Position numbers and translations under genes: made by a program. Positions 5,726 through 36,506 of a stretch of 64,000 bases of DNA are shown here, one piece after another. Under the pieces are notes generated by a model. The model did no database searches, was not told the DNA's origin, and saw only the letters and a program-made list of their open reading frames with translations. Location: sequence record SRR20825010_1231; one strand, 5' to 3'. Every line of letters starts with the position of its first letter. The stretch's first letter is position 1.

Positions 5726-7096
5726 TCAGGACCCAATGATTTCGCTGACCACCCGTCCGTGGACGTCCGTCAGGCGAAAATCGCGACCGGCGTAGGGATA
5801 CGTCAGACGCTCGTGGTCGATTCCAAGTTGATGCAGCATGGTCGCGTGCAAATCGTGCATGTGGACGCGATCGCGAACCGCGTAGTAGCCGTAATCATCG
5901 GTCTCACCGTACGTGATGCCGCCGCGAATACCGCCACCACCCAGCACCATCGAAAATCCCTGCGGGTTGTGGTCGCGGCCATTGCTGCCCTGAACAACGG
6001 GCGTCCGACCAAACTCGCCGCCCCACACGACCAACGTGTCCTCCCAGAGCCCGCGTTGTTTCAGATCTGCAAACAATCCCGCGATCGGCAGGTCCGTCTT
6101 GGCGGCATTTTTCTCGTGCCCGTTCTTCAGATTGCCATGCTGGTCCCACACCTGGCCGCTGCTGACGGTGATGAATCGAACACCGGATTCCGCCAACCGG
6201 CGTGCCATCAAACAACTGCGTCCAAACGAATCCGTCGTCTTCTCGCCGATCCCGTACAGCTTCTTGGTCGCTTCGGTTTCGGTTGATAAGTCCATCACCT
6301 CTGGCGCGGTGCCACGCATTCGATTGGCCAAGTCCACCGCCTCGATAGCACCATCCGTCGCTCGGTCTCGTCCGGCCGATTGCGCATGGCCTCGGTTGAT
6401 TCGATTGACCAAGTCAAACTGGTGTTCCTCGGCGGCATCCAGGTAAGCGATCTTTCCTTCGCCAATCTGACCGTTTTTGCCAACCACGGTCGCTTGATGC
6501 TTGGCGGGCAAGAACGCCGCCCCATAGTTACGAGGTCCACCATGCGCGGTCGCGGGTGCGATCGCGACGTGAGCCGGCAAATCCGGATGCCCGGCCCCCA
6601 AGGCATAACTGATCCATGCACCGACACTGGGACGGACAAAGTTGTCGCTGCCCGTGTTCACCATTCCCACCGCTTGGCCGTGTGATTGACCGCGAGTGTG
6701 CATGGACCGAACAACGCACAGTGAATCCAGATGCTTGTTCATCTCCGGCAATAAATCGGTCGCCCACAATCCAGCCTCACCATGCTGCGACCATTTCCAT
6801 GGGCTGGCCAGCAACGTTGGCTTGGCACTGATTTGAGGCGGCAACTCGAACGGCAAATCCTTTCCGTTGTCGGCGATCAACCGCGGCTTGTAATCAAACG
6901 TGTCGACATGCGACGGTCCGCCATGCATGAACAAGAAGATCACCCGCTTGGCTTTCGCCGGATGATGCTGAACAGGAGTCTGCACACCCGAGTCATTGGC
7001 CCACACACTCGACGCGGGCATCGCCGACGCGGTGACAGCCAACGCTCCGGTCGTCCAAGTCGATTGGACCAAGCAATCTCGACGGTTCAGTTTCAT
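5726..7096 (-). CDS. DUF1501 family (sulfatase-like) protein with Tat signal
   Basis: MKLNRRDCL Tat-like start; [38 protein letters not shown] motifs. Confidence 0.9.
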
Positions 7097-28720: not shown

Positions 28721-28789
28721 GGTGTCCAATCGCCGCCCATCCAAGCGTTGCGTGGTCAACCAATCGATCCCTCGCACCGAAAGCCCGTC

Positions 28790-31564
28790 ATGATTGCCAC
28801 CAGCACCGATTGTCTGAGCGTCGAAGAATTGAACCGTTTGCTCGACGGCCAACTGTCCTCCGACGAGTTCGATTCCGCATCCAAGCACGTCGATGAGTGC
28901 GAACAATGCCAGTCACGCATCCCAGACAAATGGGACGCGTTGTCTTCGGTTGCAAAAGCCGGTACGGAGGAAGACTCCGTCCTAGCCGAATCGGCCTGCC
29001 AATTCGCGGTCGCACGTTTGATGACCGCCCACATCGCGTCCTCCCACGTATCCGCCGACCTGCCCATCGACCAAATTGGTCCCTACGAGATCCTGGGGAA
29101 ACTTGGGCAGGGCGGAATGGGCATGGTCTGTTTGGCTCGCCACAACCGACTGAAACGACAGTGCGCGATCAAGTTGCTGCCGCCTCACCGCGTGATGGAA
29201 CCAGGATGGCTGGATCGTTTCGATCGAGAAATGACAACCATCGCGGCACTCGAACATCCGGGAATTGTTCGTGCCACCGATGCGGGCACCCATTCCGGTT
29301 GGCACTACTTGGTGATGGAACACTTGGACGGAATGGATGTCGGCAAAATCGCCCACCGACTGGGATCACTGCCGGTCGCGGATGCCTGCGAGATCGCTCG
29401 CCAGTCCGCGGTGGCACTGATGCACGTGCACGAAACAGGTTTGATCCATCGCGACGTGAAGCCATCGAACTTGATGCTCACGCGAGACGGGACGGTCAAA
29501 CTATTGGACCTGGGTTTGGTTCTGGCGGGCGACGATCCGCTTGCCACGGACGACCGGCTCACCACCGTTGGACACCTGATGGGTACCTTGCCCGCGATGT
29601 CGCCCGAGCAGTTGCTCGACAGCCGAAAAGTCCAACCGGCGTCCGACATCTATTCGCTCGGCGCGACCCTGTATCGTTTGATCTCTGGCCGTTGGCCGCA
29701 TGCAAACGAAGGTGGGTTGGCGGCACGCGTGTTGGCAATCACGAGCGAGTCCAATCGATCGACTCCGCCTCCGCTGAGCCGTTTGGAACCCTCGGTCGAA
29801 TCGGAACTGGAAACGTTCGTCGGTCAGATGATGCACCGGCAACCCGACCAGCGTCCCAGCGGATCGGTCGTTGCCGAGCGACTTGCGACCTGGTCCGGCG
29901 ATGCCAACTTGAAAGCGTTGCTCAAGCGAGCGGAAGCGACCCCGGTGTCCGACGCACCGATCACACCATCATTCCCACTGGCAACGAAACCTGCTTCACC
30001 ACCACCGGGCGGCGGCAAGCACAACTGGACCGCATGGTTTGGGCCGTTGGGTTGGTTCGCAGCAGCGGCCTTGCTCGCAACGGTCGTGATCCAAATCGAA
30101 ACCGACAAGGGTTTGGTGACGGTGACCACGGACGGCAAAGACACCCAGGTTGCGGTGGAAAAGGACGTCCAAAATTCAATGGAAGAAACCATATCAACAT
30201 CCACCGAGAAATCGCTGGCTGAAGGAATCGACTCAACTGGCGGCGAGAAGATTTATCTCGGCGAAAACCTCGATCATTGGCTCGGAGTCTTCCGTCGCGA
30301 ACAACAAATGGAACGTATTGGCCAAGCCATGCGAGCGGTTGAGTTGCTGTCTCGCAACACGCCCAAACGCGAAGAAGCCGCTCGAGTCACGTTGGAGTTG
30401 GCAAATGAGTACGGGACTCAAATCATTGATGACACTCCAGACCAAAATGGAGGCGGCTTTGGGGGACAAAGCCCTCCGAACCAACGTTTCATGGGCTATC
30501 TGACGCAAACCTTTGACAACTACCTTCCAACCCCTGGCCTTCGACCACTCGGCGAGACGCTGGTGGATGGCAATGAGAAGGCTAAAATCGCAGCCATCAC
30601 GTTGCTCAACCAGTATCTTTCAGGCGTCCAAGGGAACACTTTTTACGCAGAGCGAGAGGAATCAGTGACTGAATTTTTCAGTCAGTCTGGAGCGACCGTC
30701 GATGGCCGATCGAAAACTGAGACTTTGCTTCAACAGCTCGGAAAAGCTTCCGACGACTTAAGGATGTCGGCTTCGAAGGCTAGTCACGAAGACCGCTCCA
30801 TGAACAATGCTGCGGGAGAGGCCTACTACGCTCGCCAGTCAGCTTGGTCAGTTGCCATGCGGATTGTAAAGATGACCGGCCCGCATACTGCAACTCCAAA
30901 CTGGATCGCCGAATACGTCCAAGAACAGGTCGATGAGGCAGTTGCTGTTTACGAACAACGTGAGATCGATCCAGACACAGGGCAAACCCAATGGGACTAC
31001 ACCAATCCCAATGCAGCCTACGGTTTTTCAATGGGCGGTTTCGGCGGAGGCTCGCAAATGATCACCAGCCCGACTGCCCCTGACTGGCTGTTGTCGCGTG
31101 AACTCTTCCTCGCCGCCATCGAAATGCAAAGGGAAGGTCGGCTCGATTTACCTATCCAGTTCGCAGCGGAGACGCTAGCCCATCCGAGTTTCAATTGGTA
31201 CTCGATGGACGATTCGTCCCTCAACAACGTAGTCCGAGCCTTGGCAACGATCGATCCGGAAGCTCCTTCCCTGATCGCATTTCATCTCGACCGAAGCTTC
31301 CAAGAAATGGACCGCCAATACCAAGCTAGCCAGAACGCAGAATGGCTTCGCCCGCTGACGTATTTTCAGCAGCGTCTCAAAGAAGGTCTGGCATCCGTCT
31401 ACACCACTCACGTCGATCACCCCAAACAGGCTCACGATCGACTCGGACGGTTGGTCAACTCGTTGCCAAAGCTGTCGTCACTCCAACTCACCACCGACCA
31501 CGACCAAGACTTCTGGCTCTCCATGCTAAACGACCTCAAACAGCGATCCGAAAGCGAGCGATAG
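28790..31564 (+). CDS. Membrane Ser/Thr protein kinase with N-terminal anti-sigma zinc finger
   Basis: HVDECEQC; GQGGMG, AIK, HRDVKPSN, DLG, SPEQ, DIYSLG; TM followed by an extracytoplasmic domain. Confidence 0.9.
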   Translation: MIATSTDCLSVEELNRLLDGQLSSDEFDSASKHVDECEQCQSRIPDKWDALSSVAKAGTEEDSVLAESACQFAVARLMTAHIASSHVSADLPIDQIGPYEILGKLGQGGMGMVCLARHNRLKRQCAIKLLPPHRVMEPGWLDRFDREMTTIAALEHPGIVRATDAGTHSGWHYLVMEHLDGMDVGKIAHRLGSLPVADACEIARQSAVALMHVHETGLIHRDVKPSNLMLTRDGTVKLLDLGLVLAGDDPLATDDRLTTVGHLMGTLPAMSPEQLLDSRKVQPASDIYSLGATLYRLISGRWPHANEGGLAARVLAITSESNRSTPPPLSRLEPSVESELETFVGQMMHRQPDQRPSGSVVAERLATWSGDANLKALLKRAEATPVSDAPITPSFPLATKPASPPPGGGKHNWTAWFGPLGWFAAAALLATVVIQIETDKGLVTVTTDGKDTQVAVEKDVQNSMEETISTSTEKSLAEGIDSTGGEKIYLGENLDHWLGVFRREQQMERIGQAMRAVELLSRNTPKREEAARVTLELANEYGTQIIDDTPDQNGGGFGGQSPPNQRFMGYLTQTFDNYLPTPGLRPLGETLVDGNEKAKIAAITLLNQYLSGVQGNTFYAEREESVTEFFSQSGATVDGRSKTETLLQQLGKASDDLRMSASKASHEDRSMNNAAGEAYYARQSAWSVAMRIVKMTGPHTATPNWIAEYVQEQVDEAVAVYEQREIDPDTGQTQWDYTNPNAAYGFSMGGFGGGSQMITSPTAPDWLLSRELFLAAIEMQREGRLDLPIQFAAETLAHPSFNWYSMDDSSLNNVVRALATIDPEAPSLIAFHLDRSFQEMDRQYQASQNAEWLRPLTYFQQRLKEGLASVYTTHVDHPKQAHDRLGRLVNSLPKLSSLQLTTDHDQDFWLSMLNDLKQRSESER

Positions 31565-31600
31565 CGTCGGCCTGGAATTCTTCATCGAAGACTGTTTCAG

Positions 31601-31711
31601 GAACACTAATCGACGCTAATCGTACACTAATCTTCGAGGCAATCACTCTCCAGCTCACAACGATTAGTGCGAGATCAGAGGAGATTAGTGTTCCCCCGCC
31701 TCCACCATCTC
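31601..31711. repeat. Palindromic repeat, copy 1 (hairpin 31601-31693 plus conserved tail)
   Basis: gaacactaatc-gacgctaatc-gtacactaatc ... gattagtgcga-gatcagagga-gattagtgttc. Confidence 0.9.
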
Positions 31712-31824
31712 GGCAACACGGAATCCAACACAAAGAGTTGTCGCGAAGTACAAAACGCAAACTGCCTCGCCTAGCGACCTACGCTATCGCTATCGCTGCA
31801 GATTGCCTGCCGGACGAATTTGAA

Positions 31825-31939
31825 GAACACTAATCGACGCTAATCGCACACTAATTTCGAAGGCAATTACGCTCTCAGTTCACAACGATTAGTGTGCGAT
31901 GAGAGAAGATTAGTGTTCCCCCCCGGCGTCCACCACCTC
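31825..31939. repeat. Palindromic repeat, copy 2 (hairpin 31825-31918 plus conserved tail)
   Basis: gaacactaatc-gacgctaatc-gcacactaat ... gattagtgtgc-gatgagagaa-gattagtgttc; direct copy of the 31601 element. Confidence 0.9.
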
Positions 31940-31946
31940 AATGACT

Positions 31947-32339
31947 TCATTGCGAATGCAAATCATCGATCACGAATCGCTTCCATTCCAAGTCACCCTT
32001 CTTTCCAAAGTTGATGAGGTAACCAACTCGTTTCCGGGCGATTCGCATGTAGTTGAATAACTGAGCTTTATGATCAGAGCAAAGTTCTTTCAAAGCCTTC
32101 AGCTCGACCACGATTCCACCGAAAACTAACAGGTCAGGTCGGTACTTCGGAGCCAAAAGATGCCCCTTGAAATACACGCTTATTTCAGCTTGGGCAACGA
32201 ATGAGATCCCCCTCAATCCGAGCTCCACCTCCAAAGCGGACTGATAGACTTCCTCTGCCATTCCATAGCCAAGTTGATTGTAGACCTCGAATGCGGCCCC
32301 CATCAGGTCGTAGCCTTCTTGCTTGAACATGAATCCCAC
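31947..32339 (-). CDS. GxxExxY protein (PD-(D/E)xK nuclease superfamily)
   Basis: LGYGMAEEVY, RPDLLV, VELK, AQLFNYM, GYLINFG; alternative ATG at 32330. Confidence 0.9.
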   Translation of the reverse strand: MGFMFKQEGYDLMGAAFEVYNQLGYGMAEEVYQSALEVELGLRGISFVAQAEISVYFKGHLLAPKYRPDLLVFGGIVVELKALKELCSDHKAQLFNYMRIARKRVGYLINFGKKGDLEWKRFVIDDLHSQ

Positions 32340-32430
32340 CTAGAAACTGCGGATCGCACGGTTCCCTTGGCCCTCGAACCTTAAGCGTGCGTCTGAAACG
32401 CCTTCGGTCAGAAGTCTTCACGTCAATCTA

Positions 32431-33495
32431 TCAAATCACCCGACCTTGTTCTGGCAGCACCTTTTGGAGTTGCTCGATGGCGGTGGGAGAGTTGACTGAC
32501 AGAGCGGTTGGTATTTGAAGTGGCAGGGTCACCGATCCATCGCCGCGGATGACCATTGAGTTCGTCCAAGGACTCGCGGGCATGAATGCTTTCGCATGCT
32601 CCACACCAGGGTCACATCCACCGATTTGCAGATCAACCGAACGATCGCCGGACATTCGATGGCCGATCCCCACCAACCGAATCATGGGAGTGGAATCGGT
32701 CTCTGAATCAGACACGATCGACGCAAGTGATTCATTGGTTTGCCAAGCATGCACGCTTCGCAGCGTCGCGGCGGGATCCAAGGTCACGCAAACACAACGA
32801 GCTGACTCATTGCGACGACGAGTGATTCTCGCGATCATCGCGGCGGTCATCTCCGCTTCGTCCGCATCAAGTGCTCCCGGACCGATCACGATTGCCGCGT
32901 ACGAGCTTTCGTGAAAATGCTTGGCCCAGGCTTGAAACTCAGAACCTTCTTCGGTCGCTTCCGGGTGCTCGATCGCATGATGCATCCGACCAGCAAAATC
33001 GGCGGTCCATCGCTCCCAACGCTTCACCTTTCGCTTGCCATCCGTTGCACTGGAGACAGCGGACTCCAAACGCAGTTTTGCTTCCAAACGAGGCCAAGCC
33101 GGATCGACTTCACCAATCAACCAAACCAAATCGGCGTGCGTGACGACTTCGGAAAGTGTTGCGGCAAAGATCCCGTCACGTCGCGTGACCGTTCCAATGG
33201 CCAGGAGCGAAGGATCCGATTCGATTTCAACTTCGATCACCCCGTCGGATTGCCACTGAACCAACTGCCGAGCCGCCACCAGATCCACCCCCGAAGTGAT
33301 CACGCGAATGGGTTGCTTGCAGCCGGCGATCCGGGCCAACGTCGCCTTGTCCGTTCGAGCCACTTGGTTCACCAACGAACCCGCCGACTCAGCGATCTCG
33401 CACCCGTTTGCCTGAACCGATCCGTCCGCGTTCACCACGACATCGTCGCAGTGCAGTGGACAGAGCGGGCAAACAACACGAGACGGTTCGCTCAC
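32431..33495 (-). CDS. Formylmethanofuran dehydrogenase subunit B-like (FhcB/FwdB), divergent
   Basis: N-terminal CPLCPLHCDD; TLSEV..HADLV; IRGDGSVTLPL. Confidence 0.65.
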   Translation of the reverse strand: MSEPSRVVCPLCPLHCDDVVVNADGSVQANGCEIAESAGSLVNQVARTDKATLARIAGCKQPIRVITSGVDLVAARQLVQWQSDGVIEVEIESDPSLLAIGTVTRRDGIFAATLSEVVTHADLVWLIGEVDPAWPRLEAKLRLESAVSSATDGKRKVKRWERWTADFAGRMHHAIEHPEATEEGSEFQAWAKHFHESSYAAIVIGPGALDADEAEMTAAMIARITRRRNESARCVCVTLDPAATLRSVHAWQTNESLASIVSDSETDSTPMIRLVGIGHRMSGDRSVDLQIGGCDPGVEHAKAFMPASPWTNSMVIRGDGSVTLPLQIPTALSVNSPTAIEQLQKVLPEQGRVI

Positions 33496-35513
33496 GAATC
33501 CGTTCCGCCATCCTCGGCTGAGAAATCATCTCGCACCGAGAGTTCTTTCACGGCTTTGACCAATTCAATGGCATTTTCAACCGGGGTTTGTTGCAACACG
33601 CCATGACCGAGATTGAAGATGTGTCCGGGACGCCCGCCGGCCTTGTTCAAAACATCTTGCACGGCCGCGCGAATGGTCTTGGCATCGGTCAACAACACCG
33701 ACGGGTCCAGGTTGCCTTGGACCGAGATGTCATGCCCGACCCGTTTCCAGGCCACGTCCAGTTCGATCCGCCAATCGACTCCCACCACCGTCCGACGATC
33801 GCCACGCAACAAAGGCAACAATTCAGGATTGCCGGTTGCGAAGTTGATCAGTGGCACGCCAGGAGTCACGCCTTCCAAGATGCGTTTCATCCAAGGCAGC
33901 ACAAACTCGCTGTAGTCACCTGGCGACAAACAACCAGCCCAACTGTCGAACAATTGCACACACTGGGCTCCCGCTGAGATCTGCTCGTTCAGGTAGACGA
34001 TGATTGCGTCGGTCAACCGATCCATCAACGCGGCCCAGCCCCCATCGCCGGCCCGCATCAAAGCTTTCGTGCTGCTGTATTGGCGGCTGCCGCCACCTTC
34101 GATCGCATAACTGGCCAGCGTGAACGGAGCGCCAGCGAATCCGATCAACGGAATCCCCTCGGGCAGGTCCGCTCGCGTTTGCTTGACCGTCTCATAGACG
34201 AACCCAAGATCCTGCGGGCTGTCGAGTCCTTTGACTCGGTCGACATCCGCCGCCGACCGAACCGGGTTGTGAATGACTGGTCCATCGCCTTTGACGAACT
34301 CCAAGTCGAATCCCATCGGAACCAAGATCGGCAACAAGTCCGAGAAAATGATCGCCGCGTCGACATTCAGCTTTTCGACGGCCGTGCACATCACTTCGCT
34401 GCACAACTTAGGATTGGCGCAGAGTTCCAAGAACGTTTGCTGCGATCGAACTTCCCGGTACTCCTGCATGTAGCGACCGGCTTGCCGCATCATCCAAACC
34501 GGGGTGCGGGGCGTGGGCTCACCGCGACACGCACGCATGAACAAACTGGACTGGGAGGGATGATCGTCGATGGCGGGCATAGGTATCTTGCTAGCAGAAA
34601 TGAGACTGGAATCATCTGCCCGCAGAGAGACAGACGTTTGAGAAGTGGATGACTGGGAGCCAGACGATCTCTCGCGAACTTCGTCGACCAAACGTTTGGC
34701 ATCGCGAGCCGACTCGCTGACGAGGTGCCCCATTTTTGGATGCGATGGTTCCATCGCGATGGCCAAATCGTGTTCTCGCAACATGTCGCTGGTCGTTGGC
34801 CCGATTGACACGATCGCGGTCTTTGACAAACCGTCGCGAAGCGAATCGCTCACGCCAAGGTCTTCGGCCATGCGGAGCAAGTTGACGACTTGATGAGCAC
34901 TGGTGACCAACAAGATGTCTCGTTCGCCTTCGGCCAAAGCCAGCGTGTTCGCCTTTAGCGGCTGAGTGTCTTCGGGGAATTCCCAACCGTAGACTTTGAC
35001 GGATTCGGCAATCGCACCGCGAGCTTCCAAGCCGGCGATCAACTGTTTGTTGCTGACGCCGTATTCTTGAATTCCAATCGTTTGATTCGCGATCGGAATC
35101 CCCGCGTCGATCGTTTGCAACAATTCTCGCCAAGTGTTTGGCTCCGGCACGCGGTGGGTCGGCTTCAACCCAAACTCTCGCATCACCGCGACCGGTTTAG
35201 GGCCGCGGCAGATCGTTGTGATGTCGCTCAAGGCGTCGATCAACCGTTGTTGGTCGACGTGTTTTTCAGTCGCTTTGAGCAAATATCGAAAACCAACGCC
35301 GGTCATCACAATCACGATACCAATGTCACCGGTGATGATCCGATAAGCAAAATCAATCGCTGCCCGGTTGGGTTCGATCGGCACCTCTCGCATCGATGGA
35401 CTGACAAACGCTTCGCCCCCGAATTTGCAAATCAATCGCGTCATATCGTCAGCCCGTCGGCTTTCGAGAGCGGCCACGCGAAGGCCGTCAAAATTGTTAG
35501 TTGTCGCGGCCAT
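33492..35513 (-). CDS. hemE: Uroporphyrinogen-III synthase (HemD) / uroporphyrinogen decarboxylase (HemE) fusion
   Basis: N-terminal LESRRA..RGPKP..SIGPTTS (HemD); C-terminal PVWMMRQAGRY, IIFSDLL, QLFDSW, FNLGHG (HemE). Confidence 0.9.
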   Translation of the reverse strand: MAATTNNFDGLRVAALESRRADDMTRLICKFGGEAFVSPSMREVPIEPNRAAIDFAYRIITGDIGIVIVMTGVGFRYLLKATEKHVDQQRLIDALSDITTICRGPKPVAVMREFGLKPTHRVPEPNTWRELLQTIDAGIPIANQTIGIQEYGVSNKQLIAGLEARGAIAESVKVYGWEFPEDTQPLKANTLALAEGERDILLVTSAHQVVNLLRMAEDLGVSDSLRDGLSKTAIVSIGPTTSDMLREHDLAIAMEPSHPKMGHLVSESARDAKRLVDEVRERSSGSQSSTSQTSVSLRADDSSLISASKIPMPAIDDHPSQSSLFMRACRGEPTPRTPVWMMRQAGRYMQEYREVRSQQTFLELCANPKLCSEVMCTAVEKLNVDAAIIFSDLLPILVPMGFDLEFVKGDGPVIHNPVRSAADVDRVKGLDSPQDLGFVYETVKQTRADLPEGIPLIGFAGAPFTLASYAIEGGGSRQYSSTKALMRAGDGGWAALMDRLTDAIIVYLNEQISAGAQCVQLFDSWAGCLSPGDYSEFVLPWMKRILEGVTPGVPLINFATGNPELLPLLRGDRRTVVGVDWRIELDVAWKRVGHDISVQGNLDPSVLLTDAKTIRAAVQDVLNKAGGRPGHIFNLGHGVLQQTPVENAIELVKAVKELSVRDDFSAEDGGTDS

Positions 35514-36325: not shown

Positions 36326-36506
36326 GTACGTTGGGCTTCCAAGCCCGACGGAAGAGATGGTTTCGCAATCGTCATCGGGCATGTGAGCCGCTCGGCGTTC
36401 GCCACGGCTCCCGCGCTCGACCGGGGCGAATACCCAAACGGCCCACGGGATTTACCCCAACCATTCCTGCTTCGATGGTTTCGCCGGGCTTGGAAGCCCA
36501 GCGTAC
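36326..36506. repeat. REPIN-like pair of inverted GTAC-REPs enclosing a second palindromic element
   Basis: gtacgttgggcttccaagcccgacg (36326-36350) and cgccgggcttggaagcccagcgtac (36482-36506); inner palindrome at 36383-36446. Confidence 0.8.

Follow-up and report, generated by a model that had tools for sequence, protein, structure and literature searches.

The closest described counterparts of the locus reported here are the REPIN/REP-RAYT systems which, as set out in passages of two papers (PMC3116915, PMC3337134), combine a single-copy gene for a DNA-cleaving enzyme with flanking short palindromic repeats. Gene-less copies of these repeats also occur, often as inverted doublets and tandem arrays, and the repeat type is matched to the enzyme lineage. 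We find a similar layout in a 64,000-nucleotide stretch of DNA from sequence record SRR20825010_1231 (the window), where a gene for a small GxxExxY (PDDEXK_3) protein, a predicted DNA-cleaving enzyme, lies next to two direct copies of a long hairpin with arms built from tandem subunits sharing a CTAAT core. Comparison with related genomes and with loci from many phyla suggests that the two CTAAT hairpins are probably the cognate repeats of the adjacent GxxExxY gene and that the pair belongs to a widespread compact nuclease-plus-palindrome family, for which we propose binding, cutting and maintenance of the palindromes by the enzyme.

The window locus differs from REPIN-RAYT systems in enzyme, repeat structure and copy number. 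RAYT proteins are HUH/Y1 transposases, whereas the window enzyme is a 127-130 amino acid PD-(D/E)xK protein whose gene matches PF13366 only; Y1_Tnp genes are found elsewhere in related genomes and, in genomes G007 and G012, at this very site, but not at the window locus. A REP is a single hairpin with a conserved tetranucleotide head, given as GTAG or CGTC in a passage of PMC3733652. In contrast, the arms in the window start with GGAAC(A/G)CTAATC and consist of three tandem 10-11-nt subunits. REPINs reach tens to hundreds of copies, whereas nearly all window-type hairpins in the genus are linked to the gene. In the window, repeats flank the gene only 3' of it; in G021:C44, G012:C23 and G034 they do so on both sides, and gene-less copies are mostly miniature inverted-repeat transposable elements (MITEs) with separate ends. 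An earlier note on this DNA, made from the sequence alone, had drawn the RAYT/REPIN parallel with a different nuclease fold. The layout and the PD-(D/E)xK enzyme agree with it, whereas the dispersed arms belong to a MITE with its own ends, perhaps moved by another enzyme, which weakens the analogy.

The hairpins beside the gene are part of a 122-nt repeat unit present in two direct copies with 79-84% identity and a start-to-start distance of 224-225 nt (Table 1). Each unit contains an imperfect hairpin of about 95 nt with arms of 31-33 nt (31600-31694 and 31824-31919). The left-arm subunits ACACTAATC, ACGCTAATC and ACACTAAT(C/T) start at positions 31603, 31613 and 31624 in copy 1 and at 31827, 31837 and 31848 in copy 2, with the same spacing of 10 and 11 nt. 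The consensus (A/G)C(A/G)CT(A/G)ATC fits left and right arms alike, each arm carrying three direct subunits. Right-arm complements with a GATTAG core are located at 31662 and 31683 in copy 1 and at 31887 and 31908 in copy 2, the middle subunit being degenerate in both (GATCAG and GATGAG). Both copies share the loop, about 30 nt long, as well as a C-rich tail, which in copy 2 stops at 31941, a few bases short of the GxxExxY stop codon (31947-31949). These searches recover the architecture described in the earlier note in all its parts: two direct copies with a period of 224, three 10-11-nt CTAAT subunits per left arm, right-arm complements with a degenerate middle, and a conserved loop and tail ending near the stop codon.

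Under identical settings, no other hairpin with separate arms of at least 30 nt is found in the window, and a second detector of our own agrees. Z-scores for folding as single-stranded DNA are -3.3 (+ strand) and -3.6 (- strand) for copy 1 and -6.5 (+) and -5.0 (-) for copy 2, and none of 200 shuffles folded as well as the hairpin DNA. A/G differences between the two arms are uncompensated in hairpins of the window clade and mismatches in their spacers are conserved. This pattern is closer to what repeated binding sites for a protein would show than to the outcome of selection on perfect pairing of the stem. The sole Rfam match at permissive thresholds, mir-986 (24.6 bits, gathering score 70), was dismissed as a chance match to a hairpin.

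The GxxExxY gene encodes a predicted PD-(D/E)xK nuclease with an intact motif set. Its product comprises 130 amino acids from a GTG at 32339 or 127 from an ATG at 32330 and matches PF13366 (E 4.5e-40, 137.1 bits, cut-off 22) and TIGR04256 (GxxExxY protein; E 9.7e-38, 129.1 bits, cut-off 35), both above cut-off, confirming the earlier identification. The motif residues are G21-x-G23-x-x-E26-x-x-Y29, D66, E76-x-K78 and Q90-x-x-x-Y94. In a 33-sequence alignment that includes the window protein, G21, G23, E26, Y29, D66, K78 and N107 are invariant and E76, Q90 and Y94 nearly so. We take E...D...ExK...QxxxY to be the motif set of RecB/Cas4-type PD-(D/E)xK nucleases. An AlphaFold2 (AF2) model with a predicted local distance difference test score (pLDDT) of 92.2 and a predicted template modeling score (pTM) of 0.85 has as its nearest solved folds in Foldseek the Cas4 protein SSO0001 (4ic1, E 2.6e-4), an archaeal Hjc (2wcw, E 7.4e-4), lambda exonuclease and RecE; these scores are modest (template modeling scores of 0.4-0.6, E 2.6e-4 or weaker). 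The model points to the PD-(D/E)xK nuclease fold named in the earlier note, an alpha-beta core around a central mixed sheet. No solved structure matches the protein by sequence, PADLOC gives a Cas4 match at E 0.009 only and PHROGs gives none. In predicted fold and motif set the protein resembles Cas4/RecB-type nucleases and archaeal Hjc; unlike Cas4, its gene has no CRISPR context. Hjc cuts four-way junctions, the kind of structure that a cruciform palindrome would extrude.

Subunit hairpins are concentrated at GxxExxY loci throughout the genus. Five genomes contain 18 PF13366 matches. Using a detector requiring arms of at least 26 nt, at least 75% complementarity and a loop of at most 120 nt, which like our other detectors is ungapped and overlooks decayed arms, we found 33 hairpins in 13 of the 18 loci (3.3 kb each); the tandem-subunit type is present in 12 of the 18. 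As a control, 400 kb from these genomes, sampled as twenty 20-kb stretches at arbitrary positions, yielded 8 hairpins, 2 of the subunit type, and the rest of the window beyond its two hairpins yielded none. The difference was evaluated for all loci (12/18 loci versus 2/121 windows, Fisher p 2e-11) and for nine gene lineages, six of them positive (6/9, p 4e-7); relatives are non-independent samples. Among 25 additional GxxExxY loci taken from other relatives, 13 scored positive. The core differs by lineage, with CTAAT, TTCGTGT, CTTCGTG, ATCTGTG and CACAGAG types. Nearly all CTTCGTG hairpins adjoin genes of their own clade, and the two genomes without that clade gave no matches.

A CTTCGTG-clade GxxExxY gene is split in G001 into an N-terminal piece (L066, G001:91454-91696) and a C-terminal piece (L067, G001:433060-433179) about 340 kb apart, both still adjoining hairpin arms, which suggests a rearrangement breakpoint inside the gene. 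G021 contains at least two other dispersed palindromic families, of the TCGTTTAACGGCAAGCCG and ATCGAAACCCGAAGCGTGAGCGAGGGAT types (L084 11863-11930; L085 2451-11498; L086 3960-4041), without tandem subunits and away from GxxExxY genes. It also contains a gene-less palindrome on G021:C2 (L085 15217-15410) with 39-nt arms of near-perfect tandem GAGTGAA heptamers (97% periodicity) and a 116-nt loop; there is no PF13366 match on that contig.

The same gene clade and core recur together in unrelated surroundings. CTAAT-type hairpins accompany the gene of the window's clade in at least five contexts with non-homologous flanks: the window locus, G021:C44, G012:C23, G006:C6 and G034:C403. In G021:C44, a clade-I GxxExxY gene has DUF1559 genes as neighbors on either side and is flanked by two hairpins in one direction and four in the opposite one, and in G012:C23 a clade-I gene has CTAAT hairpins on both sides. 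The more distant protein relatives in G006 (63% identity) and G034 (56%) keep a (G/A)CTAAT core beside the gene, on both sides of it at G034:C403. In the protein tree the window sequence belongs to a 5-row CTAAT clade (SH-like approximate likelihood ratio test (SH-aLRT) 97) nested in a 12-row branch (SH-aLRT 95). This branch has longer subunits of 9-11 nt and complete, often tandem hairpins beside the gene instead of the usual single arms enclosing it. The window lineage with its 10-11-nt subunits is a variant of a wider family, which usually has 8-9-nt subunits of the CACGAAG or CACAGAG type.

The association extends across many bacterial phyla. We examined 80 GxxExxY loci from these phyla and one archaeon, a non-random sample of best matches to one sub-family (queried with a 10-protein alignment). 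Compact hairpins are 11.7-fold denser within 150 nt of the gene (0.55 per kb) than farther away (0.047 per kb). Inverted subunit arms (250 nt on each side, score of at least 14) bracket 43 of 74 testable genes, compared with 1 of 248 positions shifted by 2-3 kb and 8 of 285 neighboring open reading frames (ORFs). These wide-set arms typically consist of three 8-9-nt subunits (CACGAAG, CACAGAG, CACGGAG, CGCAAAG, CGCAGAG) abutting the start and stop codons, and the arms are found in either orientation with respect to the gene. Core type and protein clade go together: on a 109-protein tree the core label changes 17 times, compared with a mean of 36.6 (range 32-39) in 300 label shuffles. One CACGAAG clade spans, by record titles, Planctomycetota, Desulfobacterales, Nitrospirales, Gammaproteobacteria, Acidobacteriota and Verrucomicrobiales. 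The association of GxxExxY genes with hairpins is more than chance, and the recurrence of one gene-core pair in unrelated contexts is left unexplained by linkage alone. Of the enrichment and covariation that the earlier note had proposed to look for in the flanks of GxxExxY homologues, the first is found and the second is not, the arm differences in hairpins of the window clade being uncompensated. Its candidate nuclease-plus-repeat system is supported by the association across genomes and by the clade-specific cores. Among the ORFs used as controls, three features of about 2.7-2.9 kb have strong inverted-repeat flanks (L151 6949-9639, L186 5939-8830 and L162 1103-3994; scores 39, 30 and 16); judging by size, these may be 23S rRNA genes together with their processing stems.

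The window locus itself varies among closely related genomes. The order kinase, hairpins, GxxExxY gene and 354 amino acid gene is kept in G001, the nearest genome (51% of sampled words in common with the window), and in G010, G020 and G022. The number of hairpins at the orthologous locus is two in G001 (the first decayed), two in G010, three in G020 and one in G022. In a related strain (run X3) a contig joins 31600 to 31825, leaving a single hairpin copy with 22 nt shared at the joint. G007 and G012, whose 354 amino acid neighbor is 85-87% identical and thus as close as in G010 and G020, have neither the GxxExxY gene nor the hairpins in the orthologous gap (window 31565-32430). Instead, the gap is occupied by a gene for a 239 amino acid Y1/RAYT-like protein with an HUH-type 'NHVH' motif (L123 2545-3997, L121 2548-3548; PF01797 E 1e-5; NCBIfam REP_Tyr_transpos 63 bits, below the cut-off of 80). 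In G007, five 149-nt tandem repeats detected by Tandem Repeats Finder (TRF), which was applied to this genome only, precede the RAYT-like gene. A similar repeated pattern is suggested for G012 by the ORF listing, and the 149-nt repeat has no match in the window. One gap hosts two different enzyme-plus-repeat occupants across sister genomes. The locus is not purely vertical because hairpin copies vary from one to three and a RAYT-like gene lies at the same site in two sister genomes, and the fully vertical locus that would have spoken against the earlier note's proposal was not found. The empty site it had hoped for in sister strains is borne out only in part: G007 and G012 lack gene and hairpins, but the gap between the kinase and the 354 amino acid gene is filled. 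No empty site was found for the gene-bearing copy at G012:C23, whose two flanks are not adjacent in G001, G010, G020, G007 or G022.

The identification of the 354 amino acid neighbor as fhcB could not be confirmed; its N-terminal match to formylmethanofuran dehydrogenase subunit B reaches 22.7 bits against a cut-off of 327.8 and there is no Pfam match. Beyond it, a single 673 amino acid ORF (33492-35513, - strand) combines HemD (uroporphyrinogen-III synthase, residues 22-265) and HemE (uroporphyrinogen decarboxylase, residues 322-657). G001 carries about 3 kb without a window counterpart (G001:4152500-4155487, L068 1-2988; alignment with the window resumes at 5726), a stretch that includes weak CTAAT-arm matches at G001:4154739-4154836.

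Away from the gene, the CTAAT arm is found mainly within a mobile MITE. A copy count of the kind proposed in the earlier note places the 33-nt arm at about 17 further G001 loci. In these dispersed copies the arm order is reversed, with the right-arm type first and 16 nt between the arms, and the pair forms the center of an element of about 192 bp with terminal inverted repeats, the copies of which are about 90% identical to each other. Both terminal cores and 11-13-nt flanking direct repeats are present at 14 of 15 G001 loci examined. Two features of the flanking repeats, their variation between copies and their own small palindromic form, indicate target duplication. The CTAAT-core MITE is mobile now or was recently, because one site is filled in G001 and empty in the window (Table 1). 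The 192-bp element shows all the hallmarks of a MITE, namely terminal inverted repeats, target duplication, lack of coding capacity, several copies and insertion polymorphism, whereas the two window hairpins have neither outer ends nor a target duplication and have no associated transposase from a known family. The MITE may derive from the gene-hairpin unit, or it may be independent and have captured the arm pair. In the run that contains the window itself, short high-depth unitigs carry the MITE central spacer. A few bases from the empty MITE site and inside a small hairpin-like target, the window contains a 107-nt segment absent from G001 (36367-36473), flanked by the 11-nt direct repeat GATGGTTTCGC.

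With up to one mismatch allowed, counts of triple-subunit arms are 33 in G001, 46 in G010, 23 in G020 and 14 in G012, all of which have the clade-I gene, and 2 in the equally close G007, which lacks it; reversed-pattern controls gave none. Compact dispersed hairpins in the window's arm order are present in G036, and at G010:C34 there are two decayed window-type hairpins in tandem without a gene. At a contig end in G020 (G020:C48:204376-205543, L044 4877-6044), four tandem units with a period of about 360-366 nt each contain a CTAAT pair with the right arm ahead of the left and represent an array form of the MITE-type arrangement.

Table 1. Features of the GxxExxY locus and of the nearby MITE site (window positions).
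Feature	Position	Strand	Basis	Remarks
GxxExxY / PDDEXK_3 gene	31947-32339	-	PF13366, TIGR04256, motif set, AF2 model, Foldseek	
Repeat unit copy 1	31595-31716	none	repeat, subunit and hairpin searches; DNA fold z	
Copy 1 arms	left 31600-31632, right 31662-31694			79% complementary; loop 31633-31661 (29 nt)
Copy 1 C-rich tail	31695-31716			
Spacer separating the units	31717-31818			not repeated; spacer plus one unit is the 224-nt block missing in one related strain (run X3)
Repeat unit copy 2	31819-31941	none	repeat, subunit and hairpin searches; DNA fold z	
Copy 2 arms	left about 31824-31855, right about 31888-31919			87% complementary; loop 31856-31887 (32 nt)
Copy 2 C-rich tail	31920-31941			
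Ser/Thr protein kinase gene	28748-31564	+	profile match, synteny	convergent; left bound of variable gap
354 amino acid gene	32431-33495	-		right bound of gap; co-oriented with the GxxExxY gene, 91 nt upstream
Empty MITE site	36345/36346			filled in G001 by about 205 nt between two direct GGCTTCCAAGCC copies; flanks 95-98% identical to window

If the CTAAT hairpins are indeed the cognate repeats of the GxxExxY gene, several protomers of the small PD-(D/E)xK protein would each recognize one subunit, three per arm, and the spacing of one helical turn would place them on one face of the helix. A Mg-dependent nuclease activity would then nick or cut the palindrome, and repair or recombination at the cut would keep, duplicate and occasionally move the gene-plus-hairpin unit. 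Gene-less hairpins, including the second window copy and the decayed pair of a sister genome, would be derivatives of this process, as might the MITE core. More tentatively, and with somewhat more doubt than confidence, we suggest from sequence comparison that GxxExxY proteins as a whole may be the mobility or maintenance enzymes of an unrecognized class of ultra-compact elements in bacteria and some archaea. In its common form such an element would span about 0.45 kb, with a 125 amino acid nuclease as its sole gene that reads three subunits per inverted arm. The CTAAT branch would be distinguished by 10-11-nt subunits and free-standing hairpins, and gene-less hairpins and the MITE would be non-autonomous offspring. 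We know of no insertion sequence (IS) family that matches a gene-plus-arms unit of about 0.45 kb coding only for a small PD-(D/E)xK protein.

Several observations weigh against a cognate gene-hairpin unit. The uncompensated A/G arm differences indicate that hairpin integrity as such may not be selected. In the window, hairpins are confined to the region 3' of the gene, with no arm in the 91 nt 5' of it, and by the criteria used no arms were seen in 6 of the 18 genus loci, in 12 of the 25 additional ones and in 31 of the 74 from the wide set. The 22-nt joint of the one-copy/two-copy difference is equally expected from plain recombination between direct repeats. Kin share core labels and simple linkage would also cluster cores on the tree; the 80 wide loci, in addition, are best matches to a single sub-family and not a random sample. 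CTAAT arm matches are present in G011 (14), G018 (15) and G036 (18), yet no close relative of the window protein was found there with this query. Finally, the dispersed arm copies are MITEs with their own ends, 11-13-nt target duplications and the opposite arm order, and another transposase may move them.

It is conceivable, though unlikely, that the association is real and that the hairpins serve expression of the gene. As RNA, the stems could stabilize or end the transcript or act as RNase III targets, insulating a promoterless cassette; as DNA, they could be operators for autoregulation. ORF-bearing intervening sequences of 23S rRNA provide a model for such an insulated cassette. Like the window locus, they hold a small ORF without annotated function inside pairable inverted repeats and are tolerated within transcription units. 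Their ORF family encodes a four-helix-bundle protein, whereas the window locus lies outside any rRNA gene and its protein belongs to PF13366. The gene in the window sits 91 nt downstream of a co-oriented gene, a promoter scan of the locus found no promoter-like site for it, and the hairpins would fall in its 3' untranslated region; in the wide set the arms abut start and stop codons. In 16 of 24 loci, RNA of the sense strand forms a more stable fold than RNA of the antisense strand, but this 16 versus 8 split is weak, the loci are non-independent and the comparison provides no usable strand signal. A role in expression is further at odds with the lack of compensation between arms, with the occurrence of both arm orientations relative to the gene and with gene-less copies away from any GxxExxY gene. 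There are no terminator-like sites in 31300-32600 and no T-run follows a stem on either strand, the tails being C-rich on the + strand. An expression role would also leave the intact nuclease active site without a function.

Alternatively, gene and hairpins could be unrelated, gaps between convergent genes being permissive sites that gather selfish DNA and the hairpins being ordinary REP- or MITE-type repeats moved by another enzyme. We regard this coincidence as improbable. The RAYT-like gene and 149-nt repeats in the same gap of G007 and G012, the palindromic families of the genus that are unconnected with GxxExxY genes, the presence of the CTAAT arm in a MITE that has ends and a target duplication of its own, and the orphan CTAAT populations in G011 and G036 would all be expected under it. 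Evidence against it is provided by clade-specific cores that stay with their genes in unrelated contexts and across phyla, by the excess of bracketed genes over neighboring ORFs (43/74 versus 8/285) and by the confinement of the CTTCGTG family to the flanks of its own gene clade. A duplicated intrinsic terminator, the fallback of the earlier note, would suit strong predicted stems between the convergent kinase and GxxExxY genes but is highly improbable given the missing T-runs and terminator-like sites, the 31-33-nt stems with conserved internal mismatches and three repeated subunits, and the recurrence of the arm at about 17 other G001 loci inside a MITE. The order of gene followed by palindrome also brings integron attC sites to mind, a reading that dispersed, MITE-like copies do not favor.

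The PF13366/TIGR04256 proteins form a large family in many phyla with no assigned function, and the palindromes represent a concrete candidate substrate. One published passage on GxxExxY/PDDEXK_3 proteins concerns their confusion with cas4, and another gives it as 'unknown', its clades mixing bacterial and archaeal members; in the literature searched we found no link between GxxExxY or PDDEXK_3 and palindromic repeats. The locus described here adds a variant whose subunits are spaced by one helical turn, a site at which natural alleles have one, two or three hairpins or a RAYT-like gene, and a connection of the arm to a MITE of proven insertion polymorphism. The clade-specific partnership with palindromes makes the function of GxxExxY proteins directly testable. 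If the proposed partnership is true, it would be a second one between an enzyme and palindromes, mechanistically unrelated to REPIN-RAYT, and if the enzyme maintains or moves its repeats, many 'orphan' intergenic hairpin repeats would be explained.

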